Sequence record: OQ319938.1
DNA: 62,357 nt
Direction: 5' to 3' (one strand)
Origin: Pseudomonas phage 20Sep420
Below the pieces are notes generated by a model, which made no database searches, had not been told where the DNA came from, and saw only the letters and a list, made by a program, of their open reading frames with translations. Both the position numbers and the translations under genes were made by a program. Within the stretch, counting starts at the first letter, position 1. Every line of letters starts with the position of its first letter. This document shows positions 2,697 to 37,841 of this stretch, one piece after another.

Positions 2697-2700
2697 GGTA

Positions 2701-3114: not shown

Positions 3115-3494
3115 TGCTTAACTCCAATGCCTATGATTACGCGAACGTCGGAAGGCTTCAACACTTCCTTCCATTCGATGCCCTTGATGACACCGCCGTC
3201 GCGAATCTTGGTGATTTCGTTGGTATCGAGGTCGAGCGGTGGGGCGCACAGGCAGACCTGCACGTCGCTGCTAAACATGTTCCCGGTTTCAACAGTTTCA
3301 CCAAAGCCCGAACCTTGATACGGTACGAATACGGCGTCCACTGTGGTCAGGACGACTTCTTGGTTTGTACTTCCGTTCCACGGCTTCGTAGGATCGATAG
3401 GGACAGACTTTATTCCCATCAGATCGACCTTCCTGCCATGCTTTTTGATGAGCCGCTTCGCAAGCTCATACTTCTTCATGTGGTTGGCATTCAT
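3111..3494 (-). CDS. head-closure or neck protein candidate, 127 aa
   Basis: Start and stop overlap the flanking structural genes. The call rests on position. Confidence 0.35.
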   Translation of the reverse strand: MNANHMKKYELAKRLIKKHGRKVDLMGIKSVPIDPTKPWNGSTNQEVVLTTVDAVFVPYQGSGFGETVETGNMFSSDVQVCLCAPPLDLDTNEITKIRDGGVIKGIEWKEVLKPSDVRVIIGIGVKH

Positions 3495-4000
3495 GCGCGG
3501 ATCACTCGCCCCTGGGAGTTGCAGCGAAACGGACCCATCAGAGTGTCGGCCTTCGGGAAAGGTGCGAACTGCATATAGGTGCCAACACCGGTAACGTTGT
3601 TGACGCCATACTTAACACGTTCCTCGATAGGCCCGACTTTCTCAGTACGCTCGGCCACAGCAAGGCCAGACGGATCGACGGTAGGCCGTAGCCACAGTTC
3701 ATCCTCACTCGCGGCCAGGGCATATTCCATTGCGGCGCGCTTCACTGCTTCCGGAATGCCATCCCAGGCATCACGCGGGAAAGCAAGGGCCTGGAACTCG
3801 TTCAGAACTTCGCCCTTCAAGCAGGACCAACGAACGCCGATATAATCGGTGCCGTTGACCAGTGCTGACTCTTTGTCTTCGGTCGGAAGGTTGGCCCAGG
3901 ATATGATGCCGCGCAGCTTGAAATACGCGTCCGCTTCAGCCACGCTAACGTAGCTGTTGCTGTCCATCATCCCCGTTCCGTCTTCAACGATCAGGCTCAT
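3491..4000 (-). CDS. head-tail adaptor (gp6-like), 169 aa
   Basis: First small gene after the head gene set. The N-terminal SYVSVAEADAYF-type sequence is typical of adaptor proteins. Confidence 0.4.
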   Translation of the reverse strand: MSLIVEDGTGMMDSNSYVSVAEADAYFKLRGIISWANLPTEDKESALVNGTDYIGVRWSCLKGEVLNEFQALAFPRDAWDGIPEAVKRAAMEYALAASEDELWLRPTVDPSGLAVAERTEKVGPIEERVKYGVNNVTGVGTYMQFAPFPKADTLMGPFRCNSQGRVIRA

Positions 4001-4167
4001 TCGAAGTTACCTCTGTGTCTTCTTTTGGTGGCTGAGGTTCCGGCTCCGGTTCAGGCTCGATCTTCTCGATTCGGCTTTTCCGATTCCAATAAAGGGCCGC
4101 CTGAAGGCGACCCTTTACAGTCTCTCGGCTACGCCACCCAGCGGTGCGCTTCACCATGAGGTCCCCC

Positions 4168-18333: not shown

Positions 18334-18515
18334 ATGAGGTAGTAACTCCGTAGTAGGTAGGTGAAGCATACAATGTGAAGGATGAACCTAAAATGACCGG
18401 GGGAGATTTTGGGGACCTATGGCTCACCCACCCCTAGTAATTATATGTACCCCACCCCATACGCCGAAAGGCCGACCCTTTCGGATCAGCCTTCATTCAT
18501 TCAGCGTTGGTTGTG

Positions 18516-19036: not shown

Positions 19037-19134
19037 GTCTTGTTCCTAATTAGTGGCTGGTAGGCGGTAGTGCCGTCCCAGTGAGTACATAATAGCACTC
19101 TTTTCCACCTTGTGCGTATCCGAACCTAAGATAT

Positions 19135-19371
19135 TTATCTACTATTCAGGATTCTAGCTTCCTCTTCCCAGGTCGCCTGGACTCGCTTGGCTGCTGTGTC
19201 TTCGCCAACATGGTTGAAGATTCCACACTTCACTACGCGCAACCCCTTGAACCGTGGATTGATTTTCAGACGCTCCACGGGCAGCGTTCCGGTGTACTCG
19301 ATCAGGGCGATGCGAGTATAGCCGTGTGCGTGCATGCCCGTAGGAACGGCTGTAAGTACGCGGTAGCTCAT
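19135..19371 (-). CDS. hypothetical protein, 78 aa
   Basis: Compact ORF. Confidence 0.5.
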   Translation of the reverse strand: MSYRVLTAVPTGMHAHGYTRIALIEYTGTLPVERLKINPRFKGLRVVKCGIFNHVGEDTAAKRVQATWEEEARILNSR

Positions 19372-19658
19372 CCTTCACACTCAATAAAAACAATCTGGCA
19401 CAAACCATAGGGACGAATCACATAGCCGTCGCCGTGGCTTTCGGTTTTGCATCGAATACCGGTAAGCCCAAGCTTGGCTTTGACCGCCTTGATCAATTCA
19501 CGCTTTGCGATACGGTCGGCACGTGCATAGGTTCCTACACCACCGTCATACCCATAATGAGTAAGCTCGGGCATGGTGACAGTTCCGCGCTTAACCCATG
19601 AGTAATTGGCTTCGCCAGCAAAGGTGTCGGTGTGTTCATAGCTGTATTTGATGCTCAT
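19368..19658 (-). CDS. hypothetical protein, 96 aa
   Basis: TAATG overlap. Confidence 0.5.
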   Translation of the reverse strand: MSIKYSYEHTDTFAGEANYSWVKRGTVTMPELTHYGYDGGVGTYARADRIAKRELIKAVKAKLGLTGIRCKTESHGDGYVIRPYGLCQIVFIECEG

Positions 19659-19861
19659 TACTTGGCCTTCCTGTCGATTACGGCACGAACAAAGCGGAAA
19701 TTCTCATTGCCGAGCGTCGCATTGTAGTAATTCAGACAGTCCCGGCAGGTGCGCCAGTGATTCGTGCTGGCGTAATACTTGGGATTCCCTGCGGTGTCGA
19801 GAATGTAGATATCGATCTTCGGGTTGGACTCGCGGTATTCCGGCTTAGTCTGAATTGCCAT
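19658..19861 (-). CDS. Cys-containing small protein, 67 aa (CRDC motif)
   Basis: Internal ATG with a GGAG RBS. Confidence 0.4.
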   Translation of the reverse strand: MAIQTKPEYRESNPKIDIYILDTAGNPKYYASTNHWRTCRDCLNYYNATLGNENFRFVRAVIDRKAK

Positions 19862-19936
19862 AAGAATCTCCTGTTTCACGTGGAACATGTTGCGGATAGG
19901 TGGATGCTCACTCATTGAATGAGCATCGGCCTAGCT

Positions 19937-20371
19937 TTAACGTGCGTAGAAGATATGGCCGTCGAATTCGTGGACGGTATAGTCCTGTTTCAGCGCGTCA
20001 TAGTCAATCTTGACGCTGATCCACGACGGCAAACCTTTATGGAAATCATACAACTCCTCGACCATATCATCCATACGTTCCTCGAAATCGTCGGTGTGGA
20101 TGATTTCGTGCGGATACCAATCACCGTTCCACTGGTGATCGCCGCCCATACCCTTCAGTTCGTCGGCGATTTCCTGCAACGCATTCAGTTCGTGCCACTC
20201 ATCCTGCATTCCCTCGAAATTGCCCACGTCCTGCAATGCGTACTCAAACGACAGGGTACTTTCCTGTTCGTCGTGGTGCGCTTCCAGTTCATCGCGCAGT
20301 TCGTCAATACGGTCGGTGATTTCTTCCATGCGAACCGAAGTGGAGAAGTCGATGGTGTGTTTAACGGTCAT
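19937..20371 (-). CDS. ArdA-like acidic antirestriction (DNA mimic) protein, 144 aa
   Basis: Very acidic. The C-terminal MVEELYDFHKGLPSWISVKIDYDAL resembles ArdA LIEECYDLRHLPDFIADHIDYEGI. Confidence 0.5.
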   Translation of the reverse strand: MTVKHTIDFSTSVRMEEITDRIDELRDELEAHHDEQESTLSFEYALQDVGNFEGMQDEWHELNALQEIADELKGMGGDHQWNGDWYPHEIIHTDDFEERMDDMVEELYDFHKGLPSWISVKIDYDALKQDYTVHEFDGHIFYAR

Positions 20372-20461
20372 TTGCGTGTTCCTAAGTGTTTGTGAGCCGA
20401 TGGGGTTATTATGGGGGTTGATTCTATGTTTGACAACCCCCGAACCTAAGATATTTAGGAT

Positions 20462-20869
20462 TTATTCAGCGTACTTTCGAGCTGTCGCGAGACATGCCAT
20501 GGAAGTCGGCATCTTACCCAAGCGGACAGTCTCGCGGACAAACCAAATACCCAGCGGCTCGCACACGTCATATGCGTACACACCGCCGTAATTCTCGCTG
20601 CACTCACTCCACACTTTCTGCACAGCCGGGTGGCACAGGGCGAGCATGCCCGTAATGAATTCGATCTGGCCGTAGCCCATACGGGAAATGATGGTTCCGT
20701 TTTGGCGCCCACCCTCATCGAGTGCCTGAATGGCGCCCATGCCAAGGTATGCGATATCGGCTGGATCAACCCGAAGTGCCGCAGCGCCAGCGGTCAATGC
20801 CTCACGTTCGGCGGAATTGGCTTCATACACACCGTTTGCAATACGTTCCAGAATATCAGCGTTGTTCAT
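20462..20869 (-). CDS. hypothetical protein, 135 aa
   Basis: Compact ORF. Confidence 0.5.
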   Translation of the reverse strand: MNNADILERIANGVYEANSAEREALTAGAAALRVDPADIAYLGMGAIQALDEGGRQNGTIISRMGYGQIEFITGMLALCHPAVQKVWSECSENYGGVYAYDVCEPLGIWFVRETVRLGKMPTSMACLATARKYAE

Positions 20870-20870
20870 C

Positions 20871-21068
20871 TTATATCTCGTTCATCGGAATGCACATATC
20901 ATGCGGGATTGCTTGGCAGTCGGACCAAGTGCGGTAAGTATCGGTTACATATTCGTCTCCTGTCAAGTGGTCGATCTGAATCACAGCGTACAAATTCGTC
21001 TGTGCGTAGCCGTATGCCATACCGGCCAACATGACCACACTAGCGCCGATAGCGGTCATGCTTCCCAT
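20871..21068 (-). CDS. small membrane protein, 65 aa
   Basis: N-terminal TM segment. Confidence 0.45.
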   Translation of the reverse strand: MGSMTAIGASVVMLAGMAYGYAQTNLYAVIQIDHLTGDEYVTDTYRTWSDCQAIPHDMCIPMNEI

Positions 21069-21202
21069 ACTGCGGTCCCCTTGGGCAGACGTGCGACGCG
21101 AAGGCTATTGCGGGCTGCGGCTCGCGCTTCGGATTCATTGGCACCGTAGAAGGTGAATGCGTATGCGTGGCCCGGTACGTGGATATTGTAACGCTTGCTC
21201 AT
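21056..21202 (-). CDS. small protein, 48 aa
   Basis: Found by hand. GGGAGA RBS. Confidence 0.3.
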   Translation of the reverse strand: MSKRYNIHVPGHAYAFTFYGANESEARAAARNSLRVARLPKGTAVWEA

Positions 21203-21217
21203 TTCGGTGTCTCCCTG

Positions 21218-21436
21218 TTAGTTAGTAGTGGTCGGCTTGTATGCGCGGCAGGCAGCACGTGCTTTGGTAAGGCTTGGGCCAAGATACAGCACCTTAAACC
21301 CATCTTCAGCGCGGGCAATGTAACCCATGCCCCGACCTTCAATGCGCGTTCCCTTGCCGTGAGTATCGTCCACATATCCGCAGCGGAAACCGTAGGGAGT
21401 TACGCTGCCGTTCTTATTCAGGATTTCATAGGACAT
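21218..21436 (-). CDS. first gene of the leftward middle operon, 72 aa
   Basis: GGAGACACC RBS. Confidence 0.5.
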   Translation of the reverse strand: MSYEILNKNGSVTPYGFRCGYVDDTHGKGTRIEGRGMGYIARAEDGFKVLYLGPSLTKARAACRAYKPTTTN

Positions 21437-21880
21437 TTCGGTGTCTCCTAGTCGGTGGCAGGTTTGCCGTTGCTCGATGAGTGTATTAAAGCACAGTTTC
21501 AGCCAAAAGGGTGAATGGATGCTGAATAAATCTTAGGGCCGAGATTCAGCGCTATGGAAAGGAACGGGCGCGCACGCGAATAGCACCATTAGTCCAGCCT
21601 GTCAACAAAACAGTTCGTGAATGAATTTGCTTAACGCCAGCCGAACCTAAGAGATACAGCTTGCATCATTCCCCGGCAACGAGTAGCCGGAAATATGAAC
21701 GGTTAATCGTTGTGAAATCGTGCCCGGACCGCTACGCGAGAAAGCGTAGCTTAACACGTAGTCGCTTAATGAAGGCTGAATGTTACATAGTAACCAATGA
21801 GAACCGTTCCTAATCGCTGTTTGGTGTCTCAAATGTTAATTCATCCGTTTTCGGGATTCAGGCACAGTCGGCCAGGACCC

Positions 21881-21951
21881 CATCCGTGTTTAACAGGGTG
21901 GTATCCCTATTTAACGGCCAAAAATCCAGCCATGGGTATCCGTATTTAACG
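21881..21951. repeat. three direct copies of ATCC(G/C)T(A/G)TTTAAC(A)GG (binding-site-like)
   Basis: Copies at 21881, 21899 and 21934. Confidence 0.5.
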
Positions 21952-21974
21952 GTTCAAAAATTGGCTCGATGCAG

Positions 21975-22095
21975 TAGCTACTAATTTTCGAAAAGATTTG
22001 CTGAAATTTCGTTAAGAGATTGGATTTTAAGTGGTTGATTTTAAAGAATTTAATATATAAAGAGATATAAAAGAGTATTAAGAGATATAAAACCA
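21975..22095. repeat. AT-rich iteron-like block with origin-like character
   Basis: Roughly 80 percent AT. AGAGATATAAAA occurs twice, GATTTTAA twice and AAGAGAT three times. Confidence 0.4.
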
Positions 22096-22118
22096 ACAAC
22101 TTTTACTTAGTGAGGGTA

Positions 22119-22352
22119 GGTGACAAAAAACGTGTCACAGTCAATGTAGGTGCGCGCACAGTACCCCCCACGTGACGTGCTAGACTTTTTGGTAGGTTAC
22201 GCAGAATGACCCACCCGTTACGCGTTCTCAGTCACCCACCCGCAAATCGCACATTTTCGACCTAGAATGTTAAAAAAGGCCGTTTTGTGACCTTGCGTCA
22301 CCTACCCACACTTGGCTTGACACGTGACACGGCGACTCGTAACATCACGTCA
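22119..22352 (+). promoter_or_regulatory. early promoter with a GTGAC/GTCAC operator cluster
   Basis: TTGACA at 22317-22322, a 17-nt spacer, and TAACAT at 22340-22345. Inverted repeats GTGACA-N7-TGTCAC at 22119-22138 and GTGAC-N5-GTCAC at 22287-22301. At least eight GTGAC/GTCAC half-sites lie in about 230 bp. Confidence 0.45.
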
Positions 22353-27557: not shown

Positions 27558-27574
27558 CCACAGGAGTAAGCTGT

Positions 27575-27871
27575 ATGAGCCGTAAGACCCCGAAGATCGA
27601 GAACCCGCGCCTGACGATGGGCGATGCCATGTCGTTCAAGTTCCGCGTGATGGGCAACCTCGCCAAGCGCTCGGATTTCGAAGACGATATCATCTTCAAA
27701 GTGTCCGGTCAGGCGAAATTCCGTGATAGTTCCTTCGCCATGATCCGTAGCAACAAGGATTCCGACGTGTGGCTGATCCTGTCGGCGAACTCCACTGCCA
27801 TGATCGACCTCATGGACCGCCTGCCCAAGCTGGCCGCGAAGAACGGCCTGACCATCCGCAACATCAAGTGA
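27575..27871 (+). CDS. hypothetical protein, 98 aa
   Basis: ACCACAGGAGTA-type RBS. Confidence 0.5.
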   Translation: MSRKTPKIENPRLTMGDAMSFKFRVMGNLAKRSDFEDDIIFKVSGQAKFRDSSFAMIRSNKDSDVWLILSANSTAMIDLMDRLPKLAAKNGLTIRNIK

Positions 27872-27876
27872 GCGCT

Positions 27877-28740
27877 ATGAAGAAGCCCAACACCAAGAAC
27901 CAAGCCATCCGCCGCTCCTGGGCGTACCGCAACCGCAACATAGATCCGTGCGTGATGAAGGCTGCGTGGCGCGATCTGCCAAAGGGGGTCGTGGTCATCA
28001 TCCGGATCAACGCCAAATACCATGACCGACTGAAAACCCTGTATTTCGGCGATGGTTCGTCGCTGCACTTCGCCTACAACGAAGACAACTACGTCCGCAC
28101 CGTGAAGACCGGCTTCAATGGCAATCCGGTTGAGCAGCGCCTGCACCACACCAACATGGGCCACGAAACCAAGTGGTTCATTCCGTTGGCCGAATCGAAG
28201 AATGAACCGGCGCCTGCATGGGAACTTCGTACTGGCAATGGAAAGATCGTCGGCATGATTGCCACGGAAGTGAAGAATCGTGCTGAAAACAACCGACTGT
28301 CCACCCAGGCCGAGATTATTCGTCAGCTGCGAGAGAAGAATGACGAGTTGGAGAACGTCCTGCGCACGCAGAAGGCTATCACCAAGGCATGCGAGAAGAT
28401 CGCGAATGATCGCGGCCATGTCATCAAGCGGCTGACACGTGCGCTGATCGAGCAGACGGATTCGGGCATCAAGCTGAAGGCCGCGCTGCACGCCATCACC
28501 GCCGAAGCCAACCTGATGGGACTGTTGTCCTGCCTTCGTCCGCCGAATTCGACCGTGACCACAGGTGATGCTGTGAAGCGCCTGATTACCGAAGGCGATA
28601 TCCACCACGGGCGAGCCAAGGCACTGTTCGAAGCCGCGAAGGCTGAAAGCGAGACGAATGGTTGCGAAGCCATCAAGGCCGCCCAGCAGGAAGTCCGCAG
28701 TGAGCGGACGAATGGCGCTCGCGCACCCTGGGATCGTTGA
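27877..28740 (+). CDS. hypothetical protein with a C-terminal coiled coil, 287 aa
   Basis: Internal ATG of the tool ORF 27769..28740. Confidence 0.5.
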   Translation: MKKPNTKNQAIRRSWAYRNRNIDPCVMKAAWRDLPKGVVVIIRINAKYHDRLKTLYFGDGSSLHFAYNEDNYVRTVKTGFNGNPVEQRLHHTNMGHETKWFIPLAESKNEPAPAWELRTGNGKIVGMIATEVKNRAENNRLSTQAEIIRQLREKNDELENVLRTQKAITKACEKIANDRGHVIKRLTRALIEQTDSGIKLKAALHAITAEANLMGLLSCLRPPNSTVTTGDAVKRLITEGDIHHGRAKALFEAAKAESETNGCEAIKAAQQEVRSERTNGARAPWDR

Positions 28741-28762
28741 TCCAGTAAGCTGTTGTTAAGGA

Positions 28763-28799
28763 GGACGGGTCTAGTATAGGCCCGTCCTTTAACGTATTT
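28763..28799 (+). terminator. weak intrinsic terminator candidate
   Basis: Hairpin AGGACGGG...CCCGTCCT followed by a T-rich stretch. Confidence 0.3.
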
Positions 28800-28810
28800 G
28801 GAGACATGAA

Positions 28811-29278
28811 ATGTCCGACTTGATCCACGCACGTATTACTTCGACGCAGAGCGCTATCATCGAGAAGTTCACTGAAGGGTTCGACAGCCCTTCCGACAAG
28901 GTAATTTGGTTCATGCCTCCTGGCATGGGAAAGAGTGCAGTTATGGAAGAGTTGCGCCGCAAGTACCTGGATGGTGAAAGCACCAACGGTAAGGTGGCTA
29001 CTCGGATCGAATGGGATGAACACGAACCGATTACAGCAGAGCTGCTTCAGGAATGGTGGGATGCTTTGAAAGAGCAGCCCGATGCTGTGATCGTCATCGA
29101 CAGCATTCCGCACGTACTGGACCTGAAGCGACAGTTGATGAAAGATGCCATCGAGAATGAAATGCGCTCGTTCCTTCCTACCATGATCGATGAGTGTAAG
29201 GCCCAGCTTTTCCCGGAGAAGCCGTGGATCGCCATGAATGATTGGCGCAACAACCGTCGAGGTAAGCGTAACCGTTAA
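28811..29278 (+). CDS. small P-loop NTPase, 155 aa
   Basis: Walker A FMPPGMGKSAV. Walker B-like AVIVIDSI. Confidence 0.5.
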   Translation: MSDLIHARITSTQSAIIEKFTEGFDSPSDKVIWFMPPGMGKSAVMEELRRKYLDGESTNGKVATRIEWDEHEPITAELLQEWWDALKEQPDAVIVIDSIPHVLDLKRQLMKDAIENEMRSFLPTMIDECKAQLFPEKPWIAMNDWRNNRRGKRNR

Positions 29279-29334
29279 TTCACAGTTCAGCTTAACGGAC
29301 GTATAGTACAACCATCAACTACGGAGTACGCGAC

Positions 29335-29559
29335 ATGCACACCAAGTACGACTTCTGCCTTTTCTACGATGGCCAGGATTACAGCATCACCGCAGGTATC
29401 GAACAGGACACCGATGGCAGTGGCCGTCCTCTGATCAGTGTTGAAATCGAGGATTCGGAAGAAGCATCGATCCTCGAACGTAAGGTTGGTCCGTCCCGTA
29501 TGCGTGACATGATTGTCGATGCGTACATGGAAATGGGCTTTGATGATCCCCGCGACTGA
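29335..29559 (+). CDS. hypothetical acidic protein, 74 aa
   Basis: GGAG RBS. Confidence 0.45.
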   Translation: MHTKYDFCLFYDGQDYSITAGIEQDTDGSGRPLISVEIEDSEEASILERKVGPSRMRDMIVDAYMEMGFDDPRD

Positions 29560-29569
29560 GGAACCCGCC

Positions 29570-29914
29570 ATGAAGAAGTCCAGCCGATTCGCCCTGTTGT
29601 TCTCCGCTGTGGTCATGTTCGGTAGCTGCGTTCCGGCCCAGCCAGCATACGCGCAAACCGCGCAGCAGATGCAGTATTGCGAACTGTTCGTCAGTGTCGC
29701 CGAGAAGACTGTCCATCAGCGTTACGAAGGTGTTACGATGCAGGAACTCCTGGACTACGCTAACGGGACCGACGTGTACCAGGATATCGTACCGATGATC
29801 CGCGAAGCGTACTCACTCCCGAAGGTGAACGGGCGCCAAGCGAGGGCCGGACAGGCATTCGAATTCGGTACGCGCATGTACGTCAAGTGCGTTAACATGA
29901 TGGTTCGGTTATGA
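29570..29914 (+). CDS. secreted or periplasmic protein with a signal peptide, 114 aa
   Basis: N-terminus MKKSSRFALLFSAVVMFGSCVPAQPAYA|Q. Confidence 0.5.
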   Translation: MKKSSRFALLFSAVVMFGSCVPAQPAYAQTAQQMQYCELFVSVAEKTVHQRYEGVTMQELLDYANGTDVYQDIVPMIREAYSLPKVNGRQARAGQAFEFGTRMYVKCVNMMVRL

Positions 29915-30144
29915 ACTGCGAACTGTGCGATCCGAATAGCAAGGACCCGCGCAGAATTTTCATGCAATGTTGGTGTGGAGTGAGGAACATGGAACAGGAA
30001 GGTTACGACGCATACGTCTCGATTCTGGCAAAAGGCTTTGAACCGTCATTCTTTCTCGGTATGCAGGCGTGCCCGTACCCTCTCGGTACGGATGACCGCA
30101 AGGCATGGATGAAGGGGTGGGGTAAGGCGAGGGAGGAAGCCTAA
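29911..30144 (+). CDS. Cys-rich small protein, 77 aa
   Basis: CELC...CWC. Confidence 0.4.
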   Translation: MNCELCDPNSKDPRRIFMQCWCGVRNMEQEGYDAYVSILAKGFEPSFFLGMQACPYPLGTDDRKAWMKGWGKAREEA

Positions 30145-30377
30145 TGGCATTCGACAACAAGACCATGCGGCGTGTGGTGGCGAACAAGCCTCACATCGCG
30201 TTGATCGATGGCTGGTGGCGGGTTAGCGCGATCCAGCTGAAGGGCAGGCGCTTCTCATCGGTGCCGACCTGGGCCGGAGATACCGCGCACGCCCGCTGGA
30301 ACGCAGCCCACCGGTTCATCCAGCCCTTGAACCATGCCCTGCACTGGTGCCCAACGTGCCACCAGCGGCGCCGGTAG
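30144..30377 (+). CDS. hypothetical protein, 77 aa
   Basis: ATG overlap. C-terminal CPTCH. Confidence 0.4.
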   Translation: MAFDNKTMRRVVANKPHIALIDGWWRVSAIQLKGRRFSSVPTWAGDTAHARWNAAHRFIQPLNHALHWCPTCHQRRR

Positions 30378-30453
30378 GCCCAGGTTCAGCGCCGCACAGG
30401 CAGAATGATCCCCGTACCCTAAGTGCGGGGATTTTTCTTACCGGAGATTCACA

Positions 30454-30876
30454 ATGGCATTGCTCAACCACTACACCAAAGCGCAGACTTACTTCGATAT
30501 CTTCAAGACTAATGGCTACCTCGCGCCAGCCGATCACAGCGATTTCCTGTACAACTGCACTGAAGCGCTGAAGCATATCAAGGGTCCTTACATCCGAAAG
30601 GATATGCTGGATATGATGGAAGAGGTTGTGCATGCCCTCGGAATTCCAGGCGCTATGTACGGCCACGCTCCTGGGTATCGCGGTAATGAACTGTTCCAAC
30701 TTGAACCGCGCCAGGGTGATGACTTCCGAGACACGAATGGTCGCTGGTGTCACGCATCCGATATGATCGGAGTAGTAATCAACTGGCGTGATGAGGAAGA
30801 CCTTGCATGGGAGCGCGAACAGGAGTACGCTGAAGCCTATCGTGAATCTCGGAAGCCCGAATATGCCAACTGCTAA
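30454..30876 (+). CDS. hypothetical protein, 140 aa
   Basis: Compact ORF. Confidence 0.5.
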   Translation: MALLNHYTKAQTYFDIFKTNGYLAPADHSDFLYNCTEALKHIKGPYIRKDMLDMMEEVVHALGIPGAMYGHAPGYRGNELFQLEPRQGDDFRDTNGRWCHASDMIGVVINWRDEEDLAWEREQEYAEAYRESRKPEYANC

Positions 30877-31300
30877 AGAACGACGTAATGAAATCGCTGA
30901 CCGATTGGAGAACCTGCGTAAGCGGGTTCAATGGGACACCGATTACAACACCCTCACCGACGCAATCAACGAACTGCGTAGCATCCGTGACAGGACATTC
31001 GCGACTGTGCCGAAGGGGACTCTGAAGCCGGGTAGCGCTACTTGGCACATTGTCCGTCTCCTGGAACGAACCGGTCGCGGCATGACCACAAAGGAGATTG
31101 GTGCCGAGCTAATTGGTGGCGGGTTCATCAAGTCATCCGATAGTCGCGACATGTCAACCTACCTCAACAACGCGAGGAAGGGAGGTGCCATCGTCAAGCA
31201 TCTGATCAAGTCCGAAAAGAACTGGTGGGGGTATGAAAGCACCTACGCCCTTCCGGGTGTCGAAGTTGAAGGGGAGCGCTATGTCAAACCTTTCCGTTGA
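30863..31300 (+). CDS. putative winged-helix DNA-binding protein, 145 aa
   Basis: Internal ATG. Helical region TTKEIGAELIGGGF... Confidence 0.4.
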   Translation: MPTAKERRNEIADRLENLRKRVQWDTDYNTLTDAINELRSIRDRTFATVPKGTLKPGSATWHIVRLLERTGRGMTTKEIGAELIGGGFIKSSDSRDMSTYLNNARKGGAIVKHLIKSEKNWWGYESTYALPGVEVEGERYVKPFR

Positions 31301-31628
31301 GGAACGTGACCGATACTGGTGGCTTCTGTTTGCCATCAGGGAATTAGGAGAGCATGTCTTTTCCGGCCACTCTCTGCTTGTGGACCGATACCGTGATCGG
31401 TGGCACCGGAATCCGACTGAGTTGCATCAGGACCTGTGCAGGATGGAAACGTTGTCCTGGATAAGGTTGCGTAATGCACATCGAACCATGTGGGAGCAGA
31501 AGGTAGATGGTGTAGTGAAGCATACTACTTTCGAAATCGACATTCGTTCGCATGGGTACATCCAGATGAATGAATCTCGACTGTGTACCTATCCAAGTAT
31601 TGCGGAAGAGTTCCTTCGTCGCGTATGA
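31281..31628 (+). CDS. hypothetical protein, 115 aa
   Basis: GGGGAG RBS. Confidence 0.45.
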   Translation: MSNLSVEERDRYWWLLFAIRELGEHVFSGHSLLVDRYRDRWHRNPTELHQDLCRMETLSWIRLRNAHRTMWEQKVDGVVKHTTFEIDIRSHGYIQMNESRLCTYPSIAEEFLRRV

Positions 31629-31656
31629 TTACTCCATCAGCTTAACGGAGTCAGTC

Positions 31657-31878
31657 ATGTACGCAGTAGCCAAGCACGGTAAGAACGGCAAGACCCTTTT
31701 CTTCGGCCCGGCCAACAAGGGTGCGCCCTGGCACCGCAACCCCGAGTTCGTCAAGGAATACCGCAGCGCCGATAAGGCAGCTGACGTAGCCGCCCGCTCG
31801 GGTGGTTGGGTGGTCGATTCGGATCATGCACGCTGGAACTGCGGCGAGCGGCAGGTTTGCACGGACATGCTCGGTTAA
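31657..31878 (+). CDS. hypothetical protein, 73 aa
   Basis: GGAG RBS. Confidence 0.4.
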   Translation: MYAVAKHGKNGKTLFFGPANKGAPWHRNPEFVKEYRSADKAADVAARSGGWVVDSDHARWNCGERQVCTDMLG

Positions 31879-31922
31879 GCTGGCGTTCGGTATCATCGCA
31901 TTCACATTCTCAGGAGACCCCC

Positions 31923-32183
31923 ATGTCCCGTTTCATCGAAATCAAAGGCCGTATGCAGGCCGACTTCCCCACCGACGAAGACTTCCTTCCTGATCTGATC
32001 CAATCCTTGCGGGACGAATACCCGTACTGCCATTCCAACGCCAAGCTCACTGATGGCGGAACCTGCTGGCAGGTCACGGTCATCCACAAGAAACCTGTTC
32101 CGCTGAAGGAAATCGTGGTAGCGAACATTCGCGGTCATGTCCAGGGCTGGTTCCATGCTTCCACCGGCACCAATGGTCGCTGA
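31923..32183 (+). CDS. hypothetical protein, 86 aa
   Basis: AGGAG RBS. Confidence 0.45.
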   Translation: MSRFIEIKGRMQADFPTDEDFLPDLIQSLRDEYPYCHSNAKLTDGGTCWQVTVIHKKPVPLKEIVVANIRGHVQGWFHASTGTNGR

Positions 32184-32185
32184 TC

Positions 32186-32539
32186 ATGAGTCGCGTTTCC
32201 AAGCTGAAGGATCGCTATCAGCGTGAAGTGATCCGCACGTTCCTGTCGATGGGGTTCTACCTCACCGTCAACAACGGCCATTTCGATATTTGCCGACGTG
32301 AGCGAGATTACGGTACGATCTGCGATGCCATGAAGTCGGCGTCAATCGACCGTATTACCCTGCACCGATTCAATGTGGTCAAGGTCGATCCAGTTGCAGT
32401 AGGCTGGGTTGAAATATCGCACGAAGGGGACCACAGGGACATGTTCGCCGATTACAGCCCGAGCATTTCGTTCATCATGGATAAGTTCGATGAAGCGATT
32501 CGCAACGAAGTAATCATCGACGCAAGGAAGCGCGCATGA
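32186..32539 (+). CDS. hypothetical protein, 117 aa
   Basis: Compact ORF. Confidence 0.5.
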   Translation: MSRVSKLKDRYQREVIRTFLSMGFYLTVNNGHFDICRRERDYGTICDAMKSASIDRITLHRFNVVKVDPVAVGWVEISHEGDHRDMFADYSPSISFIMDKFDEAIRNEVIIDARKRA

Positions 32540-32967
32540 AGATTGACGTTCGATTCCTTGTCGATCTGTGCAAGGTCAACGCCAGCAAAAGCAAAGACCC
32601 CTCCACCCAGGTGGGGGCGGTCATTATGCGTCCAGACGGTACGATTGCATCGGGCGGTCGTAACGGTTTTGAAATAGGAGCTAACGATGATCCGGCGCTG
32701 TTCCTTGACAGAAGCTATAAGCTCGCAAATATATTCCACGCAGAACACAACGCAATTCGGTTCGCACGGGAATCCCTCGCTGGATACTGTATTTGCGTTT
32801 GGCCGCTTCCACCCTGCGAATGCTGCATGGCACGAATCCATTCCGCTGGAATCACAGCCGTGGTTGCGCCCATTGTCCATGAGTTGAACCGTTGGTACGA
32901 TACTGGACTGCGCGCCAAACAATTCGCTTTGCAAAATGGGATTACTTATCGTGAATACTATCTCTGA
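32536..32967 (+). CDS. dCMP/cytidine deaminase (zinc-dependent)
   Basis: HAEHNAI (the H-A-E motif) and PCECC (the PCxxC motif). Confidence 0.7.
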   Translation: MKIDVRFLVDLCKVNASKSKDPSTQVGAVIMRPDGTIASGGRNGFEIGANDDPALFLDRSYKLANIFHAEHNAIRFARESLAGYCICVWPLPPCECCMARIHSAGITAVVAPIVHELNRWYDTGLRAKQFALQNGITYREYYL

Positions 32968-33259
32968 TCGTTTCGCGGGTCTCGACATTGATGCGATGGT
33001 CGAACAGATGGATGCCGAAGAGGAAAATCGGCCCAAGCCCATCCCCATCGAGAAAATCACCGAGCATTCTGCGGCCCTGGAAGCGGTGACTGCCGCCGAA
33101 GAGGCATGGCGGAATGCGATCCAGCAGCGCGATATCGCCCTGGCCGCGCACAACGAGGGTATTAAGCTCCTGCGCGTGCGCCTACAGCGCGCCCGTGACT
33201 TGGCCGACCAGCTTAAGCCTCGCCGACCGGTGGGCCGTCCAAGGCTCTACAAGCGTTGA
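32936..33259 (+). CDS. small protein with a C-terminal AT-hook-like motif, 107 aa
   Basis: C-terminal RRPVGRPRLYKR. Start uncertain. Confidence 0.35.
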   Translation: MGLLIVNTISDRFAGLDIDAMVEQMDAEEENRPKPIPIEKITEHSAALEAVTAAEEAWRNAIQQRDIALAAHNEGIKLLRVRLQRARDLADQLKPRRPVGRPRLYKR

Positions 33260-33312
33260 CGGCTCGCTGAACGTGCCGTAAGCTGTCCCCTCTTTTTCAC
33301 CGAGCCGACGCA

Positions 33313-33525
33313 ATGAATCCCGCCGTACAATTTCGTGAGCAATACGTCACATCCGGGGAAATCCAGCGCCGAGTCGGTATCTCACGTTCTGCTTTGACGC
33401 AGGCTGTGCAGGCGGGAAAGTTCCCCGCGCCGATGGACCTCGAAGAACGGCTTCATATTTGGAGCCGTGCTGAAGTCGAAGGAAACATCGCCGCATGGGC
33501 CAAGGCCCGCAATCAGAACAAGTGA
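33313..33525 (+). CDS. AlpA-like HTH DNA-binding protein, 70 aa
   Basis: The TSGEIQRRVGISRSALTQAVQAGKFP pattern of AlpA-type regulators and excisionases. Confidence 0.5.
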   Translation: MNPAVQFREQYVTSGEIQRRVGISRSALTQAVQAGKFPAPMDLEERLHIWSRAEVEGNIAAWAKARNQNK

Positions 33526-35926
33526 GCCGAACGTGTACCGACCGAATTGGGCCAATATCCCGCTGGAACTGCGAGAACGTGCGCAGTGGTGCTTCACCAA
33601 CCCGAACGCCGAAGATGGTCAGAAAAAGGCACCGCGTAAGCGCGGTGGTTATCGTGCCAGCAAGACCGATCCTTCGCATTGGATGACCTTCGAAGAAGCC
33701 TGTTTCAACGCCGAGCAGTTCGGCGGGGAAGTTGGTTTCTGCCTGAGCGAGTCCGATCCGTTCACCTGTATTGACCTGGACGTAAAGAACTCCAAGACCC
33801 ATCCGGACAAGCCCTGGATGTGGACGACTCAGAGCGACATGGATCGCCACTGGAAGATCGCACAGACCTTCGACAGCTTTACCGAACTGTCCGCTGGCGG
33901 GTTGGGTCTCCACATCTGGCTTTACGGTGATGTTGGCAAGGGCGCCCATTTCGGGCCGACCGAAGTCTACTCCCGTGATGCGTTCATCATCTGCACCGGC
34001 AACGTGGTACTCCCGCGACTCATGGCTGCGAATGATGAGTTGTTGTCGATCCTGTATAACGAGATTCGCGAACAGCAGGGCGCGGTCATGGGCTATGACA
34101 ACCTTGCCGAGGGCGAGGAAGTCAAGAGCGACGACGATATCTTCCAGATTGGCATGTCCGCACAGAACGCAGACAAGTTCAATCACCTGTGCAGCCTGAA
34201 GGTTGAAGACGCCAGTAAGTTTTATCCTTCCAATTCGGAAGCTGACCTTGCGTTGCTGTCGATCTTTGCCTACTACACGAAGTCGAACAATCAGGTGAAG
34301 CGGCTGTTCCGCTATTGCCCGCTGTCGCATCGTGAGAAGTCCCAGGAGAACGACGTTTACCTCGACCGTACCCTGGCTGGTATTCGCCGCAAGCAAGCGG
34401 AGAACGAAGCCAAGACTGCGTACGTCGATAAGGCGACGTTGAACATCCTGGACAAGCATGTTCGCGAGGCACGTATCGCGCAAGAGATTGCGAAGAACGC
34501 GACTCCGACCAGCCCTGTCCCGACCAACATTCCGCCAGTACCTCCTACCCCGGAACAGATCATTTCCGATCTTACCGAGATTCCGTTGCCGTCCTACGTT
34601 ACCGAACAGATGGCGATTGAATTCCCGACCGGGAACCTTGGGCTGTTGGCACGTTGGATGACCGCGACTGCGCAACGTCCCATCGGCGAGATTGGCATCG
34701 CGTCGGCCCTGGCGTTCTATTCCGGCCTGTGCGGCCTGAAGTTCTCCATCAACGATTCCGGCCTCAATCTCTACATTGTGGTCATCGGTCGCTCGGGTAT
34801 CGGTAAGGAAAACCTTCACAACGCAATCGGTCGTGTGTGCAACGAAGTGCGAGGTACGGCAGCGACAATCGATAAGCGATTCGACAGCCAGGACTACCGT
34901 TCGCGCCCTGCGATGATGAAGGAGATTGCTCATCGTCGCAGCTACCTGCACCTGTTCAACGAGTGGGGCAAGATGCTCGAATCGATGAACAATGACCGTG
35001 ACCACAATGCTGCGGATATCCGCCGCACTATGCTGTCACTGTTCCATAAGAGTGACGTTGGCTCGGTTGTCGGCGGCGCGGCATATTCGGACAAGGAAAA
35101 GAACGTTGACCTGAACGGCCCGGCTTCCTACGCAATGGTTGGCGAAACCACTCCGGACACGTTCTATGCTGCCATCAGCGGCAGCATGTTCGAAGATGGT
35201 ACGTTCTCCCGATTCCTGCACATCGAAACCACGGCCAACCGTGGCCCGCTGAATCCGAACAGGGCGCATCCATTCCCGTCGCAATTGCAGGAATCGATTT
35301 CCAGTATTTCGAACCTGTTCTCCGATGACGTGTATTCGGACTCATCGCGAATCCCGGTTTTGATCCTGGACGAAGCCCGCAATCGCTACACCGAGTTGGA
35401 AAACGAGTTCACGGATATCATGAACGCCAACCCGGATGACACTGCAACTACGATGATGTACACCCGTGCGGGCATTAAGATTCTTCGTATTGCGGCACTA
35501 CTTGCCGTGTCGAACAATCACTCCACTCCCCAGGTCAGCCTGTCTCAGATCGAGTGGGCTTACAAGCTGGTGAAGCTGGACATTGATCGCACCATGGCAC
35601 GTGTCGCCGCAGGTGAAATCGGCACCGGTGAAATGAACCGGATCAAGATGGTTCGTTCCTCTATGCGACTGGCCTTCAAGAACATCGCAATGTTCGACGC
35701 TCGCCATCGCAACCTGATCAAGGACGGATTGATTCCGCTGTCTGTAATCCGTCAGCTGTGTGTCAAGTCGATCAACTTCAAGGATAAGGGCAACCTGAGT
35801 CCAACGAGGATGGTAGACATGGCATTGAACGCACTTGTTGACAGCGGTGATGTTATCGAAGTACCAAAACCCTCTCTCATTTCGCAGTACAACTACACCG
35901 GCAAAGCGTTCGCGCTGAAGGATTGA
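33467..35926 (+). CDS. DNA primase: N-terminal prim-pol domain with a C-terminal P-loop (D5/SF3-like) domain
   Basis: CIDLD and GLHIW prim-pol motifs. Walker A-like VVIGRSGIGKE. Start ambiguous: GTG at 33467 or GTG at 33533. Confidence 0.7.
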   Translation: MLKSKETSPHGPRPAIRTSEPNVYRPNWANIPLELRERAQWCFTNPNAEDGQKKAPRKRGGYRASKTDPSHWMTFEEACFNAEQFGGEVGFCLSESDPFTCIDLDVKNSKTHPDKPWMWTTQSDMDRHWKIAQTFDSFTELSAGGLGLHIWLYGDVGKGAHFGPTEVYSRDAFIICTGNVVLPRLMAANDELLSILYNEIREQQGAVMGYDNLAEGEEVKSDDDIFQIGMSAQNADKFNHLCSLKVEDASKFYPSNSEADLALLSIFAYYTKSNNQVKRLFRYCPLSHREKSQENDVYLDRTLAGIRRKQAENEAKTAYVDKATLNILDKHVREARIAQEIAKNATPTSPVPTNIPPVPPTPEQIISDLTEIPLPSYVTEQMAIEFPTGNLGLLARWMTATAQRPIGEIGIASALAFYSGLCGLKFSINDSGLNLYIVVIGRSGIGKENLHNAIGRVCNEVRGTAATIDKRFDSQDYRSRPAMMKEIAHRRSYLHLFNEWGKMLESMNNDRDHNAADIRRTMLSLFHKSDVGSVVGGAAYSDKEKNVDLNGPASYAMVGETTPDTFYAAISGSMFEDGTFSRFLHIETTANRGPLNPNRAHPFPSQLQESISSISNLFSDDVYSDSSRIPVLILDEARNRYTELENEFTDIMNANPDDTATTMMYTRAGIKILRIAALLAVSNNHSTPQVSLSQIEWAYKLVKLDIDRTMARVAAGEIGTGEMNRIKMVRSSMRLAFKNIAMFDARHRNLIKDGLIPLSVIRQLCVKSINFKDKGNLSPTRMVDMALNALVDSGDVIEVPKPSLISQYNYTGKAFALKD

Positions 35927-35927
35927 C

Positions 35928-36722
35928 ATGAACAACAACGAATATATCGAACTGGCCCAGGTTACGAATACCATCGACTACAAGGACGGAATGGGTCGTT
36001 TCCTGGTGGCAGAAATCCTGGGCAACATCATCGAAGCTGGTGGCGCACTGGACGCGGTGAAGAAGTTCCAGTTCTACGGTCGTGAGACGGAAGAAACGCA
36101 GGGTCTGTTGGACGTGCAGACCCATAGCGCGATCTACAGCACCGATGACTGGTGCGACATGATCGACTTCAACAAGTTGTTCCCGAACCTCAGCCGCGAA
36201 AGCGCATTGAAGGTCTACCACGGTGTAATCGGCAAGATCACCGAAGCTGTGGAACTGGCCGAAATGCTGCGCGAATCTTTGCTGACTGGCGAACCGGTTG
36301 ACACCACCAACCTGATCGAGGAGGTTGGCGATGGCATGTGGTACGACGCCAGCATCGCTAAGGGCCTGAACACTCCACTGGAAGCCTTCCAGACGATCAA
36401 CATCGAGAAGCTGAAGAAGCGCTTCGGTGGCAAGTTCGATGCTCACAAGGCGCAGCAGGAAAACCGTGACCTGGACGCCGAGCGCAAGATTCTGGAAGGT
36501 GGCGTCGGCAACGATTTGCCTGCCCGTGTGCAGCGAATGCTCGCAGAGTATAGCGAACTCGGGAACAAGGCCCGCAAGCTGGCCGTGTTCATCAATAGCG
36601 ACATGTTCAAGACCCTTTCGGCAAATGAACAACAGCTGATGTATGACCAGCACCATGGTATGTGCGTATACATGAAGGCCCTGGATTCGCGCATCGAAAT
36701 CGCAATTGCGAACGAGGGCTGA
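35928..36722 (+). CDS. MazG-like nucleotide pyrophosphohydrolase, 264 aa
   Basis: LIEEVGDGMWY (an EExGD motif) and the helix HGVIGKITEAVELAE. Confidence 0.4.
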   Translation: MNNNEYIELAQVTNTIDYKDGMGRFLVAEILGNIIEAGGALDAVKKFQFYGRETEETQGLLDVQTHSAIYSTDDWCDMIDFNKLFPNLSRESALKVYHGVIGKITEAVELAEMLRESLLTGEPVDTTNLIEEVGDGMWYDASIAKGLNTPLEAFQTINIEKLKKRFGGKFDAHKAQQENRDLDAERKILEGGVGNDLPARVQRMLAEYSELGNKARKLAVFINSDMFKTLSANEQQLMYDQHHGMCVYMKALDSRIEIAIANEG

Positions 36723-36796
36723 ACAAGTCCAGCAGCCCTATTGTGGTCAGGGTAATTCCTGGCTACAGTAGGGCCACCTAACCACAGGAGTACGTC

Positions 36797-37207
36797 ATGG
36801 AACACGATCTGCCGAAAGAACTCTCCGACAAGTTGCAGGAATACCTGCGTGTGAACAAGGAAGCCGGTATCCTGGCCGATAAGGCTAAGAAATTGCGCCT
36901 CGAAATCGCGAAGATGGCTTTCCCGGACCCGCGTGAGGGCAGCAACACCCTTGCCCTGGGTAACGGCTACAAGCTGAAGGTGGAACACAAGATCAATCGA
37001 CGAATTGACGTGGCCGCGCTCACGATGTTCAAGGACACCTTCGAAGGGGCCGATATCAAGGTCGATGATCTTGTTCGCTACAAGCCAGAACTGACTGTCG
37101 GCAACTTCAAGAAGCTGTCGGAAGAGAAGCAGCGCATCTTCGGCCAGTGCCTGACCATCACTGAAGGCACGCCGACCGTCGAACTGGTCGAGCCGAAGGC
37201 GAAGTAA
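36797..37207 (+). CDS. hypothetical protein, 136 aa
   Basis: ACCACAGGAGTA RBS. Confidence 0.5.
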   Translation: MEHDLPKELSDKLQEYLRVNKEAGILADKAKKLRLEIAKMAFPDPREGSNTLALGNGYKLKVEHKINRRIDVAALTMFKDTFEGADIKVDDLVRYKPELTVGNFKKLSEEKQRIFGQCLTITEGTPTVELVEPKAK

Positions 37208-37273
37208 GCAAGCGTTCAGACTGAGGGTTGCATACTGTAACCCTCAACCCAACCACAACCAGGAGTTAGCAAC

Positions 37274-37516
37274 ATGGCACGTACCGCAACCAAGACCAAG
37301 GCCCCGACCGCAGTCCCGCAGACTGTGATCCACGAAATCAACGAGAAGGGGCAGCATCGCATCGTCGTGATCGGCACCCATTCTGACAAGGGCGAGTGGG
37401 TCGGACACACCGAAATCGCCTGCCTGGGCGCCTACCGCGCAACGACCGAGTTCTACAAGGGCGTCCTGCCGCAGGGCGTTTTCAAGACCGCTGGCGTCGC
37501 CTTCATCGCGATGTAA
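37274..37516 (+). CDS. hypothetical protein, 80 aa
   Basis: AGGAG RBS. Confidence 0.5.
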   Translation: MARTATKTKAPTAVPQTVIHEINEKGQHRIVVIGTHSDKGEWVGHTEIACLGAYRATTEFYKGVLPQGVFKTAGVAFIAM

Positions 37517-37523
37517 CCATCCA

Positions 37524-37599
37524 GCCGCCTTAGCTCAGTCGGTAGAGCAGCTACCTTGTAAGTAGACGGTCAGGGGTTCGAATCCTCTAGGCGGCACCA
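37524..37599 (+). tRNA. tRNA-Thr (anticodon UGU)
   Basis: I folded this by hand. 7-bp acceptor stem GCCGCCT/AGGCGGC, D arm GCTCAGTCGGTAGAGC, anticodon loop CTTGTAA, T arm AGGGGTTCGAATCCTCT, and CCA. Confidence 0.7.
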
Positions 37600-37610
37600 C
37601 TGGAACGGAC

Positions 37611-37841
37611 ATGAAGATCGAAACCAAGTTCTCCCTCGAAGATAAAGTAGTTGACGAAACTCGCACCTACGACTTCGAGAACGAAGGCGTCATCTACCGC
37701 ATCGAGTTCGAAAAGCGCGGAATCTTCTACGCAGTTCGCGGGAAGAATCGCAGCTGGCTCGCAAAGGAAGGTGCCCTTACGTTGAAGAGGGACTTCAAGC
37801 CCAATCTGCCGGTGGGTATGGAACCCGGTGAAATGGCATGA
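37611..37841 (+). CDS. hypothetical protein, 76 aa
   Basis: Compact ORF. Confidence 0.45.
   Translation: MKIETKFSLEDKVVDETRTYDFENEGVIYRIEFEKRGIFYAVRGKNRSWLAKEGALTLKRDFKPNLPVGMEPGEMA

Follow-up and report, generated by a model that had tools for sequence, protein, structure and literature searches.

UP elements are found at strong sigma-70 promoters, as in rrnB P1, and the early promoters of T5 and T7 possess AT-rich upstream blocks. In the middle promoters of T4 the MotA box is centred near -30, where it replaces the -35. An exactly conserved 12-mer typifies a specific protein site more than it does a degenerate A/T tract. The T4-type phages also carry promoter-early stem-loop (PeSL) cassettes (Arbiol et al., 2010, PMC2839356; Comeau et al., 2014, PMC4122927). 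Their layout comprises an upstream stop codon within AT-rich sequence, a promoter of sigma-70-like type and a poly-G/poly-C stem-loop situated in the -35 to -10 interval (PMC2839356).

The repeated box described here occurs in a Bixiavirus-like siphophage and shares features with each of these systems. It is real and conserved, and is a fairly ordinary phage regulatory repeat rather than a new promoter type; no new class of mechanism is indicated by it.

Sequence and conservation of the box

The window, which is the whole 62,357-nucleotide stretch of DNA analysed, contains exact matches to the 12-mer TCTTAGGTTCGG at three sites only, each of them minus-strand: 19120-19131, 20440-20451 and 21641-21652. 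Dinucleotide shuffling gave a mean of 0.01 expected matches, with three or more in none of 100 shuffles. When two mismatches were allowed, extra matches appeared only at chance level, and the probability of three random sites clustering within 2,532 bp is ~0.005. A sequence-only reading of this region had proposed three minus-strand copies of a longer element and a partial copy on the plus strand, and all four sequences were recovered in place:

19120-19150, minus strand: copy 1 of the box, CCTGAATAGTAGATAAATATCTTAGGTTCGG
20440-20470, minus strand: copy 2 of the box, GCTGAATAAATCCTAAATATCTTAGGTTCGG
21641-21660, minus strand: copy 3, partial, GCTGTATCTCTTAGGTTCGG, in the non-coding leader
21521-21537, plus strand: inverted partial copy, GCTGAATAAATCTTAGG, inside the conserved leader hairpin GCTGAAT...ATTCAGC

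An HMM built from all copies identified no further significant copy in the window. Copies 1 and 2 are identical at 25 of 30 bases and have a common layout, in which CTGAATA is followed by five variable bases and then by the 18-mer TAAATATCTTAGGTTCGG. Both contain the stop codon of the ORF upstream of them (TAA at 19137-19135 of a 78-aa ORF in copy 1, TAA at 20464-20462 of a 135-aa ORF in copy 2), and stop codons are present in all three frames within the stretch of each full copy. Copy 3 retains (TATC)TCTTAGGTTCGG only. The plus-strand copy has the exact 12-mer GCTGAATAAATC in common with copy 2, and its overall match is weak (nhmmer E=0.31). In minus-strand orientation, the AT-rich part of this copy lies at approximately -56 to -47 from an extended -10, TGcTTTAAT (21490-21485). 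The copy belongs to the conserved leader hairpin.

Related phages also carry the motif. The box was found at the same places in the Stenotrophomonas phages BUCT627, BUCT548, BUCT626 and Bhz55 and in the metagenome contig L073, the one true relative in a metagenome scan. Variable columns amount to 2 of 36 in the box against 44 of 156 in other intergenic DNA (Fisher p=0.004), in a set of only six closely related genomes whose short divergence time could partly explain the conservation. Copy 1 of Bhz55 has a single change, C to A. Searches of IMG/VR returned 35 single chance matches to a 15-mer and, when protein-guided, no relatives; papers on these phages make no mention of the motif.

Candidate promoters and the early region

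Several predicted promoters and hairpins are present in the region:

19089-19097, minus strand: extended -10 of P1, TGcTATTAT, 25 nt downstream of copy 1
20408-20436, minus strand: P2, TTGTCA, 17-nt spacer, CATAAT, at 10 of 12 consensus positions
20413-20441, minus strand: stem-loop of P2, GGGGGTTG, 13-nt loop, CAACCCCC, spanning the -35 to the -10
21577-21605, minus strand: P3, candidate leader promoter by sequence reading, TTGACA, 17-nt spacer, (TGc)TATTCG
18440-18505, minus strand: related cassette without the 12-mer, GCTGAATGAATGAA, with stops in all three frames

Both full copies end 3 nt before a -35-like hexamer, and the -10-like hexamers reported after them were confirmed, TATTAT 25 nt downstream of copy 1 and CATAAT 26 nt downstream of copy 2, as was the TTGTCA-17 nt-CATAAT arrangement after copy 2. 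The P1 hexamer TATTAT (19094-19089) has TGc in front of it and is TAATAT in two relatives. Its -35 is weak (CGCACA, 19116-19111, TGCACA in relatives; 3-4 of 6 consensus positions; 16-nt spacer) and aligns with TTGACG of BUCT603. In independent support of P1, its core CCTAGAnAAnnGTGCTATTATGTACTCACTGGG recurs in this unrelated Stenotrophomonas phage. There the core comes after a consensus -35 (TTGACG) that has T-rich sequence upstream of it, and the first rightward gene follows. A homologous promoter in the non-coding leader of Siara, CM2 and Yut1 retains ATAAATAT, an 11-mer, with an unchanged distance of 25 nt to TAATAT. A 6-bp stem, GAGTGC/GTACTC (z = -1.65), brackets the -10 of P1.

For P2, the -10 CATAAT (20413-20408) is invariant in five genomes and the -35 TTGTCA, which is TTGCCA in relatives, has 5 of 6 consensus positions. 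Relatives retain both hexamers, whereas 8 of the 13 spacer/loop positions are changed. The stem-loop has an 8-bp G5TTG/CAAC5 stem (MFE -22.2 kcal/mol, z = -2.9) with arms that are conserved and a loop that is variable among relatives. P2 is predicted to drive an acidic ArdA-like gene (20371-19937), the product of which has 38 D+E in 144 aa. The ArdA-like call is putative, being based on the annotation of phage Siara, tblastn matches to annotated ArdA-like genes and acidity, and was unconfirmed by Pfam and by a PDB sequence search.

P3 lies upstream of the first early ORF (21436-21218), and its block TGCTATTCGCG is conserved in Bixiavirus, Bhz55, Siara and CM2. The end of copy 3 is 35 nt from the -35 and 58 nt from the -10 of P3, with no -10 at the 25-26-nt spacing. 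Copy 3, which had been grouped with the promoter elements, is followed by no promoter at the same spacing and is missing from Bhz55, which retains P3. The 18440-18505 cassette has a terminator-like hairpin, with TATAAT (18445-18440) between G-rich and C-rich arms. A promoter-pattern scan of the region gave no excess over shuffles (5 sites vs 6.3), so that these promoters are argued for from their conservation and spacing.

By homology, the region corresponds to the left-end ("leading"), terminal-repeat-borne genes of relatives. The terminal repeat of Siara (annotated from PhageTerm) covers 1-2528 and ends just past the ArdA-like gene, in a hairpin, and Bhz55 has an exact 4,080-bp terminal repeat that spans both copies 1 and 2 and ends in a cassette homologous to 18440-18505. 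Given this homology to the leading end, these genes are taken to be early, not middle as in the sequence-only reading. Its description of the promoters as phage-specific is likewise unsupported, since no phage RNA polymerase gene is present in the annotation of the relative Siara, the cores look like host sigma-70 promoters and the box is upstream of the -35. What survives of its claim for promoters dividing the genes into units is that copies 1 and 2 adjoin conserved -35/-10 pairs at the starts of small units; the box itself is not a core promoter. Among ten early ORFs, no DNA-binding Pfam or PHROG family was found, and none of the early ORFs was recognised as encoding a MotA/AsiA-like protein.

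A proposed upstream promoter module and the alternatives

The explanation that we favour, with a little better than even confidence, is that the box forms an upstream module (approximately -56 to -39) of host-polymerase sigma-70-type early promoters at the leading, probably terminal-repeat-borne end of the genome. Each full box has its start at the stop codon that ends the upstream gene. Its AT-rich block, (A/C)TAAATAT, lies at approximately -56 to -49, where the alpha subunit of RNA polymerase contacts UP elements, and the invariant CTTAGGTTCGG at approximately -49 to -39 closes the box 3 nt ahead of the -35 hexamer. From conservation and position we infer that transcription starts at these sites and that the box acts on it, raising or tuning initiation at P1 and P2. 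The 11-12-mer would probably be read by a protein, for which the alpha subunit of the polymerase, a host factor and a phage factor made early are the candidates. The distal half of the box is 9/11 A/T; the proximal half, AGGTTCGG, had no match by eye to the UP-element consensus (A/T tracts from -59 to -38), and the whole agrees by eye with the E. coli consensus at ~6 of 14 specified positions, poorly in the G/C-containing half.

It is possible that the box is an activator-binding site. That the invariant 11-12-mer is the site of a lineage-specific regulator, be it an early phage protein or a recruited host factor, is a more specific proposal which we hold only tentatively and consider rather unlikely. 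If true, such a regulator would turn on or shut down, in a co-ordinated way, the promoters of the leading genes carried by the terminal repeat, the anti-restriction gene among them. The -49 to -39 position would be a swappable specificity module in front of sigma-70 promoters that are ordinary in other respects, with a different conserved 11-mer, TYGGTAGAACC, in that place in the homologous promoter of Siara-type phages.

A different origin for the repeat would be as a recombination linker or cassette relic, the shared flank of small promoter/stem-loop cassettes that have undergone duplication and moved between intergenic sites. The identity of the copies would then come from recent duplication or gene conversion, and the main effect, as with PeSLs, would be homologous exchange or deletion of early gene modules, not the binding of a factor. 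This overlaps in part with the promoter-module explanation, and we think it has a small though appreciable chance of being correct. The copies are same-strand direct repeats flanking ORFan genes, in an architecture that fits the PeSL description. Bixiavirus and Bhz55 carry the copy 2 cassette (~70 nt), which Siara, CM2 and Yut1 lack between their homologous genes, the P1-type promoter is found in the leader of Siara-type phages versus between genes in Bixia-type phages, and gene content from the ArdA-like gene to copy 1 differs in Bhz55 and L073. However, the homology breakpoints with Bhz55 and L073 (19371 and 19885) are away from the boxes, so that the swapped genes (19371-19885) are not bounded by them. 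What the copies share breaks off exactly ahead of the -35, and their core promoters are different, which indicates that whole cassettes were not simply duplicated, and there are only three to four copies, compared with ~50 per genome for PeSLs. Conservation across genomes is also above that of the flanks, pointing to selection on the sequence itself.

We regard as improbable a role for the box at the RNA level, in early transcripts that read through it, either as an RNase processing/stability site where each upstream cistron ends or as a nut/boxA-like antitermination signal in front of the stem-loops. The full copies do all lie at the 3' end of a cistron, and a stable stem-loop (z = -2.9) comes after copy 2. 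By eye, a likeness to the lambda boxA, CGCUCUUA, is seen for CUCUUA of copy 3 and for AUCUUA of copies 1 and 2. In addition, pairing with G-U wobbles is possible for CUGAAU and GUUCGG, which form either end of the 31-mer, and the leader hairpin loop CCUAAGA is complementary to UCUUAGG. The three copies nevertheless have no fold in common (z = -2.9, -1.65 and +0.11), the proposed stem would not survive the single C to A change of copy 1 in Bhz55, no boxB-like hairpin is found at a fixed distance, copy 3 is upstream of the nearest recognisable promoter and Rfam has no match. A lambda-type nut site in particular was rejected: the boxA resemblance reaches 5-6 of 8 positions, the 8-bp stem with its 13-nt loop is present in copy 2 while copies 1 and 3 have none there, and copy 3 is upstream of P3, not downstream of a promoter.

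There is little likelihood that the box is functionally neutral, a local-duplication remnant in AT-rich intergenic DNA that seems conserved through closeness of relatives: all carriers are indeed <= ~15% diverged, the box is absent from Siara, CM2, Yut1, IMG/VR and host genomes, and copy 3 is dispensable in Bhz55, but the box is significantly less variable than neighbouring non-coding columns, its spacing to the -35 is the same in two otherwise different promoters, and in Siara-type phages the 11-mer TYGGTAGAACC is kept in this place, followed by 14-16 nt that diverge.

A number of other identities were considered and rejected. A -10 inside the box (TATCTT) lacks any -35 at 16-18 nt upstream, and a plus-strand promoter in the box was discounted, the TTGACA at copy 2 (TTGGCA in relatives, by reading) having an 11-nt spacer that brings it too near any -10. 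The annotation of a tRNA-Leu(aag) over copy 2 in Bhz55 corresponds to an ARAGORN call obtained in Bhz55 only and not in the window, with no Rfam match at E<=10; no known RNA family was found with Rfam, and the leader fold is not significant (z = -0.78). The repeat ends of Siara and Bhz55 are both away from any box, and a terminal-repeat boundary or packaging signal was rejected on this basis. As for a host-derived site, the 18-mer with two degenerate positions had 11 scattered matches in 185,579 species genomes, none of them in Xanthomonadaceae. No convincing match to IHF, Fis, CRP-like, sigma-54, FliA, ECF or pho-box sites was seen by eye against their consensus sequences.

As a promoter module, the box would provide a promoter map for the first-expressed genes of these Stenotrophomonas maltophilia phages, which are therapeutic candidates. 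Their early region is annotated wholly as "hypothetical", and one of the promoters would stand ahead of the putative anti-restriction gene. It would also offer a handle on the boosting or timing of early transcription, on the question of a specific binding factor and on a possible part for PeSL-like cassettes, until now described from T4-type myoviruses, in the variable early regions of unrelated siphophages.

Comparison with known systems

Like the T4 MotA box, the box described here is short and conserved, precedes a sigma-70 -10 and is a possible activator site. In contrast to the MotA box, it ends at approximately -39 with a -35-like hexamer present, and its genes are in the earliest region. 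As it is not near -30 and does not replace the -35, a T4 MotA-type middle promoter was rejected.

With UP elements, the box shares a position directly upstream of the -35 (approximately -56 to -39), an AT-rich distal half and an association with putative promoters at the leading end of a phage dependent on host RNA polymerase. It differs in its proximal half, which is not A-rich and is off the UP consensus.

The PeSL cassettes differ from the present units in several respects. They belong to T4-type myoviruses and occur at ~50 per genome, concentrated in hyperplastic regions, whereas this Stenotrophomonas siphophage has three copies and one weak inverted copy. The repeated part here is the segment upstream of the -35 with its G/C-containing 11-12-mer, not the promoter and stem-loop, and the observed replacement breakpoints are away from the boxes. 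On the other side, the unit is intergenic between small early ORFan genes. In copies 1 and 2 the upstream stop lies in AT-rich sequence ahead of the -35, a promoter of sigma-70-like type comes next, and the 3' end carries a Shine-Dalgarno sequence with a start codon. The stem-loop of copy 2 has poly-G/poly-C arms and lies between the -35 and -10, and that of copy 1 surrounds the -10. In layout, and leaving terminator or mini-circle activity outside the likeness, the box units resemble PeSL cassettes in how they appear to be built.

Copy number and conservation of the box

The 5-kb region around the box, a repeat of about 30 nt, shares 92% identity with the Stenotrophomonas phages BUCT627 and BUCT548 (Beaumontvirinae, Bixiavirus), with BUCT626, Bhz55, Siara, CM2 and Yut1 as more remote relatives. 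At 62,357 bp against 62,354 bp for BUCT548, the window is of whole-genome size. The sequences quoted in the earlier sequence-only reading were all located at the coordinates given there. The copies lie at:

19120-19150, minus strand: copy 1
20440-20470, minus strand: copy 2
21641-21660, minus strand: copy 3, partial
21521-21537, plus strand: inverted partial copy

Copies 1 and 2 are identical at 25 of 30 bases (CTGAATA, five variable bases, then TAAATATCTTAGGTTCGG); no other non-coding repeat family in the window is convincing. Exactly three occurrences of the 12-mer TCTTAGGTTCGG are present, always on the minus strand, compared to a mean of 0.01 in shuffled sequence (0/100 shuffles reached three), and clustering of three random sites within 2.5 kb has a chance of ~0.5%. 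Relaxed matching of the 12-mer yielded extra matches at chance level only, and a profile from all known copies gave no other significant match in the window. The supposed truncated plus-strand copy scored weakly by profile (E = 0.31), although it has an exact 12-mer, GCTGAATAAATC, in common with copy 2.

All three minus-strand copies were identified at equivalent places in BUCT627, BUCT548 and BUCT626; Bhz55 and a metagenome contig of 1.6 kb carry copies 1 and 2 as well. In five-genome alignments, 2 of 36 columns of the 18-mer were variable compared to 44 of 156 other intergenic columns (Fisher p = 0.004). The box was not found in Siara, CM2 or Yut1. Scans of IMG/VR and of bacterial genomes returned scattered single matches, read as chance, which argues against the box having been borrowed from a host site.

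A different motif, GTAAGC(T/C)G, opens several intergenic gaps directly after the stop codon in the plus replication arm (27558-46230; for example at 27565, 28746, 33277 and 46184) and may represent a second intergenic motif family.

Candidate promoters beside the box

The earlier suggestion that the repeat is promoter-associated was borne out, with copies 1 and 2 each ending 3 nt before a -35-like hexamer. The two units contain the following features:

19137-19135, minus strand: stop codon TAA of the upstream gene, within copy 1, where the box begins
19094-19089, minus strand: -10 of candidate promoter P1 (extended -10 TGcTATTAT, 25 nt beyond copy 1)
20464-20462, minus strand: stop codon TAA of the upstream gene, within copy 2, where the box begins
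20436-20408, minus strand: candidate promoter P2 (TTGTCA, 17 nt, CATAAT), after copy 2

In both copies the box stretch carries stop codons in all three frames. The P2 interval from -35 to -10 is covered by an 8-bp stem (GGGGGTTG/CAACCCCC; z = -2.9), and relatives retain the hexamers (TTGCCA, CATAAT) while the loop between them differs at 8 of 13 positions. The -35 of P1 (CGCACA; relatives have TGCACA) is weak and separated by a 16-nt spacer from the -10, which a 6-bp stem brackets. The P1 core CCTAGAnAAnnGTGCTATTATGTACTCACTGGG recurs in the unrelated 45-kb Stenotrophomonas phage BUCT603 (880-1010), ahead of the first rightward gene, where the core promoter and start region GGTGCTATTATGTACTCACTGGG lie behind a T-rich upstream tract and a TTGACG that resembles the consensus. 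This recurrence independently supports P1 as a real host-type promoter, and the sequence match suggests a promoter type common to S. maltophilia phages. No phage RNA polymerase gene is present in the well-annotated relative Siara, and the proposal of phage-specific promoters found no support.

Copy 3 comprises just the 12-mer and the four bases before it. A gap of 35 nt separates it from the -35 of the downstream leader promoter P3 (21605-21577; TTGACA-17-(TGc)TATTCG), which Bhz55 retains without copy 3. No -10 occurs at the 25-26-nt spacing from copy 3; the 12-mer by itself does not track a -10. The plus-strand copy sits in a hairpin of the almost 100% conserved leader and, in minus-strand reading, its AT-rich part falls at ~-56 to -47 from an extended -10, TGcTTTAAT (21490-21485). 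Overall, the AT-rich half thus accompanies a -10 motif at a fixed distance at four sites. Siara, CM2 and Yut1 have a homologous promoter in the non-coding leader, consisting of ATAAATAT, an 11-mer, 25 nt and TAATAT; this 11-mer (TYGGTAGAACC) differs from that of the box, yet is conserved among them.

The 5' leader (21437-21582), downstream of the TGCTATTCG promoter, has almost 100% identity across Bixiavirus and Bhz55 and is better conserved than adjacent coding DNA. The fold predicted for the leader did not reach significance (z = -0.78).

Early region and predicted genome end

The genes of Siara form two arms that point outward from the ends of its genome. Minus-strand genes of the window extend leftward from 21436 and plus-strand genes rightward from about 22290, with an 850-bp non-coding stretch between them. 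Downstream of copy 2, the gene at 20371-19937 is a homologue of the Siara "ArdA-like antirestriction protein", which is the last gene within a 2,528-bp terminal repeat (PhageTerm-based annotation). The window protein is very acidic (D+E 38/144 residues), and its ArdA assignment was not confirmed by Pfam or PDB sequence searches. In the Bhz55 record, with both ends present, an exact direct terminal repeat of 4,080 bp (1-4080 and 61961-66040) takes in both copy 2 and copy 1. It terminates with a 77-nt tandem duplication of a cassette made up of terminator hairpin and TATAAT, homologous to window 18440-18505; a reading of the box as terminal-repeat boundary was rejected on this basis. Homology to position 1 of the Siara and Bhz55 records would put the physical left end of the phage near 22,095-22,125, and the three copies ~0.45, 1.65 and 3.0 kb away from that leading end. 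These are thus early genes, and their description as "middle" is unsupported, the region being homologous to the terminal-repeat early region of Siara and Bhz55.

A number of other features were observed here. Repeated units of AAGAGATATAAAA occur in a very AT-rich block (21990-22125) that overlaps the predicted left end. Three direct repeats of ~18 nt (21882-21962; minus-strand reading CCGTTAAATA(C/G)GGATACC) lie 150-250 nt inside it, in the only non-coding stretch at ~90% identity in all relatives, Siara, CM2 and Yut1 included, and could be a terminase-recognition or replication site. At ~19868-19930, directly after the ArdA-like gene, is a hairpin, GATGCTCA...TGAGCATC, the homologous spot in Siara being the terminal-repeat boundary, followed by a near-palindrome, GTTCCACGTGAAAC, which is perfect in Siara. 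Together with more CACGTG and GTGAC sites (22120-22350) around the plus-arm promoter TTGACA-17-TAACAT (22317-22345), these may form an operator set. Between this hairpin and a 78-aa gene, 19371-19885 is a hypervariable early-gene slot, with different small genes in the window, Bhz55 and the metagenome contig.

Interpretation and comparison with known systems

The box is a genuine promoter-upstream repeat, conserved and restricted to one lineage, in the region presumed to be expressed earliest. Judged from sequence, the most economical reading, and one towards which we lean, is that it serves as upstream module, at about -56 to -39, in early promoters of sigma-70 type. Its AT-rich half would occupy the site at which UP elements interact with the alpha subunit of the polymerase, and the invariant 11-12-mer, abutting the -35, is probably read by some protein. 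No DNA-binding family was recognisable among ten early ORFs. The G/C-containing half matches the UP consensus poorly. As a generic promoter scan showed no enrichment in the box region, the argument for an upstream module rests on spacing and phylogenetic footprint. It seems rather unlikely that the 11-12-mer is recognised by a regulator particular to this lineage that acts on the leading-end promoters.

A tRNA-Leu(aag) in the Bhz55 record (L005 6371-6460) covers copy 2 on the opposite strand and is reproduced by ARAGORN. It has no Rfam match, no call in the window and an unusual anticodon position; the tRNA reading was rejected, and the public entry is most likely a false-positive call. The geometry of the T4 MotA box is not that of this element, and a nut site was also rejected.

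In promoter-early stem-loop (PeSL) cassettes of T4-type phages, an AT-rich stretch holds an upstream stop codon and precedes a sigma-70-like promoter; a stem-loop, often poly-G/poly-C, lies between the -35 and -10 of this promoter or overlaps them, and a ribosome-binding site comes next (PMC2839356; PMC4122927). The box unit as a whole agrees with this published layout. However, there are 3-4 copies here compared to about 50, and the boxes do not clearly coincide with recombination junctions: lineages differ by an indel of the copy 2 cassette and in the context of the P1-type promoter, while the swapped genes at 19371-19885 have no boxes at their bounds. The element is therefore PeSL-like in build rather than a member of the PeSL family.
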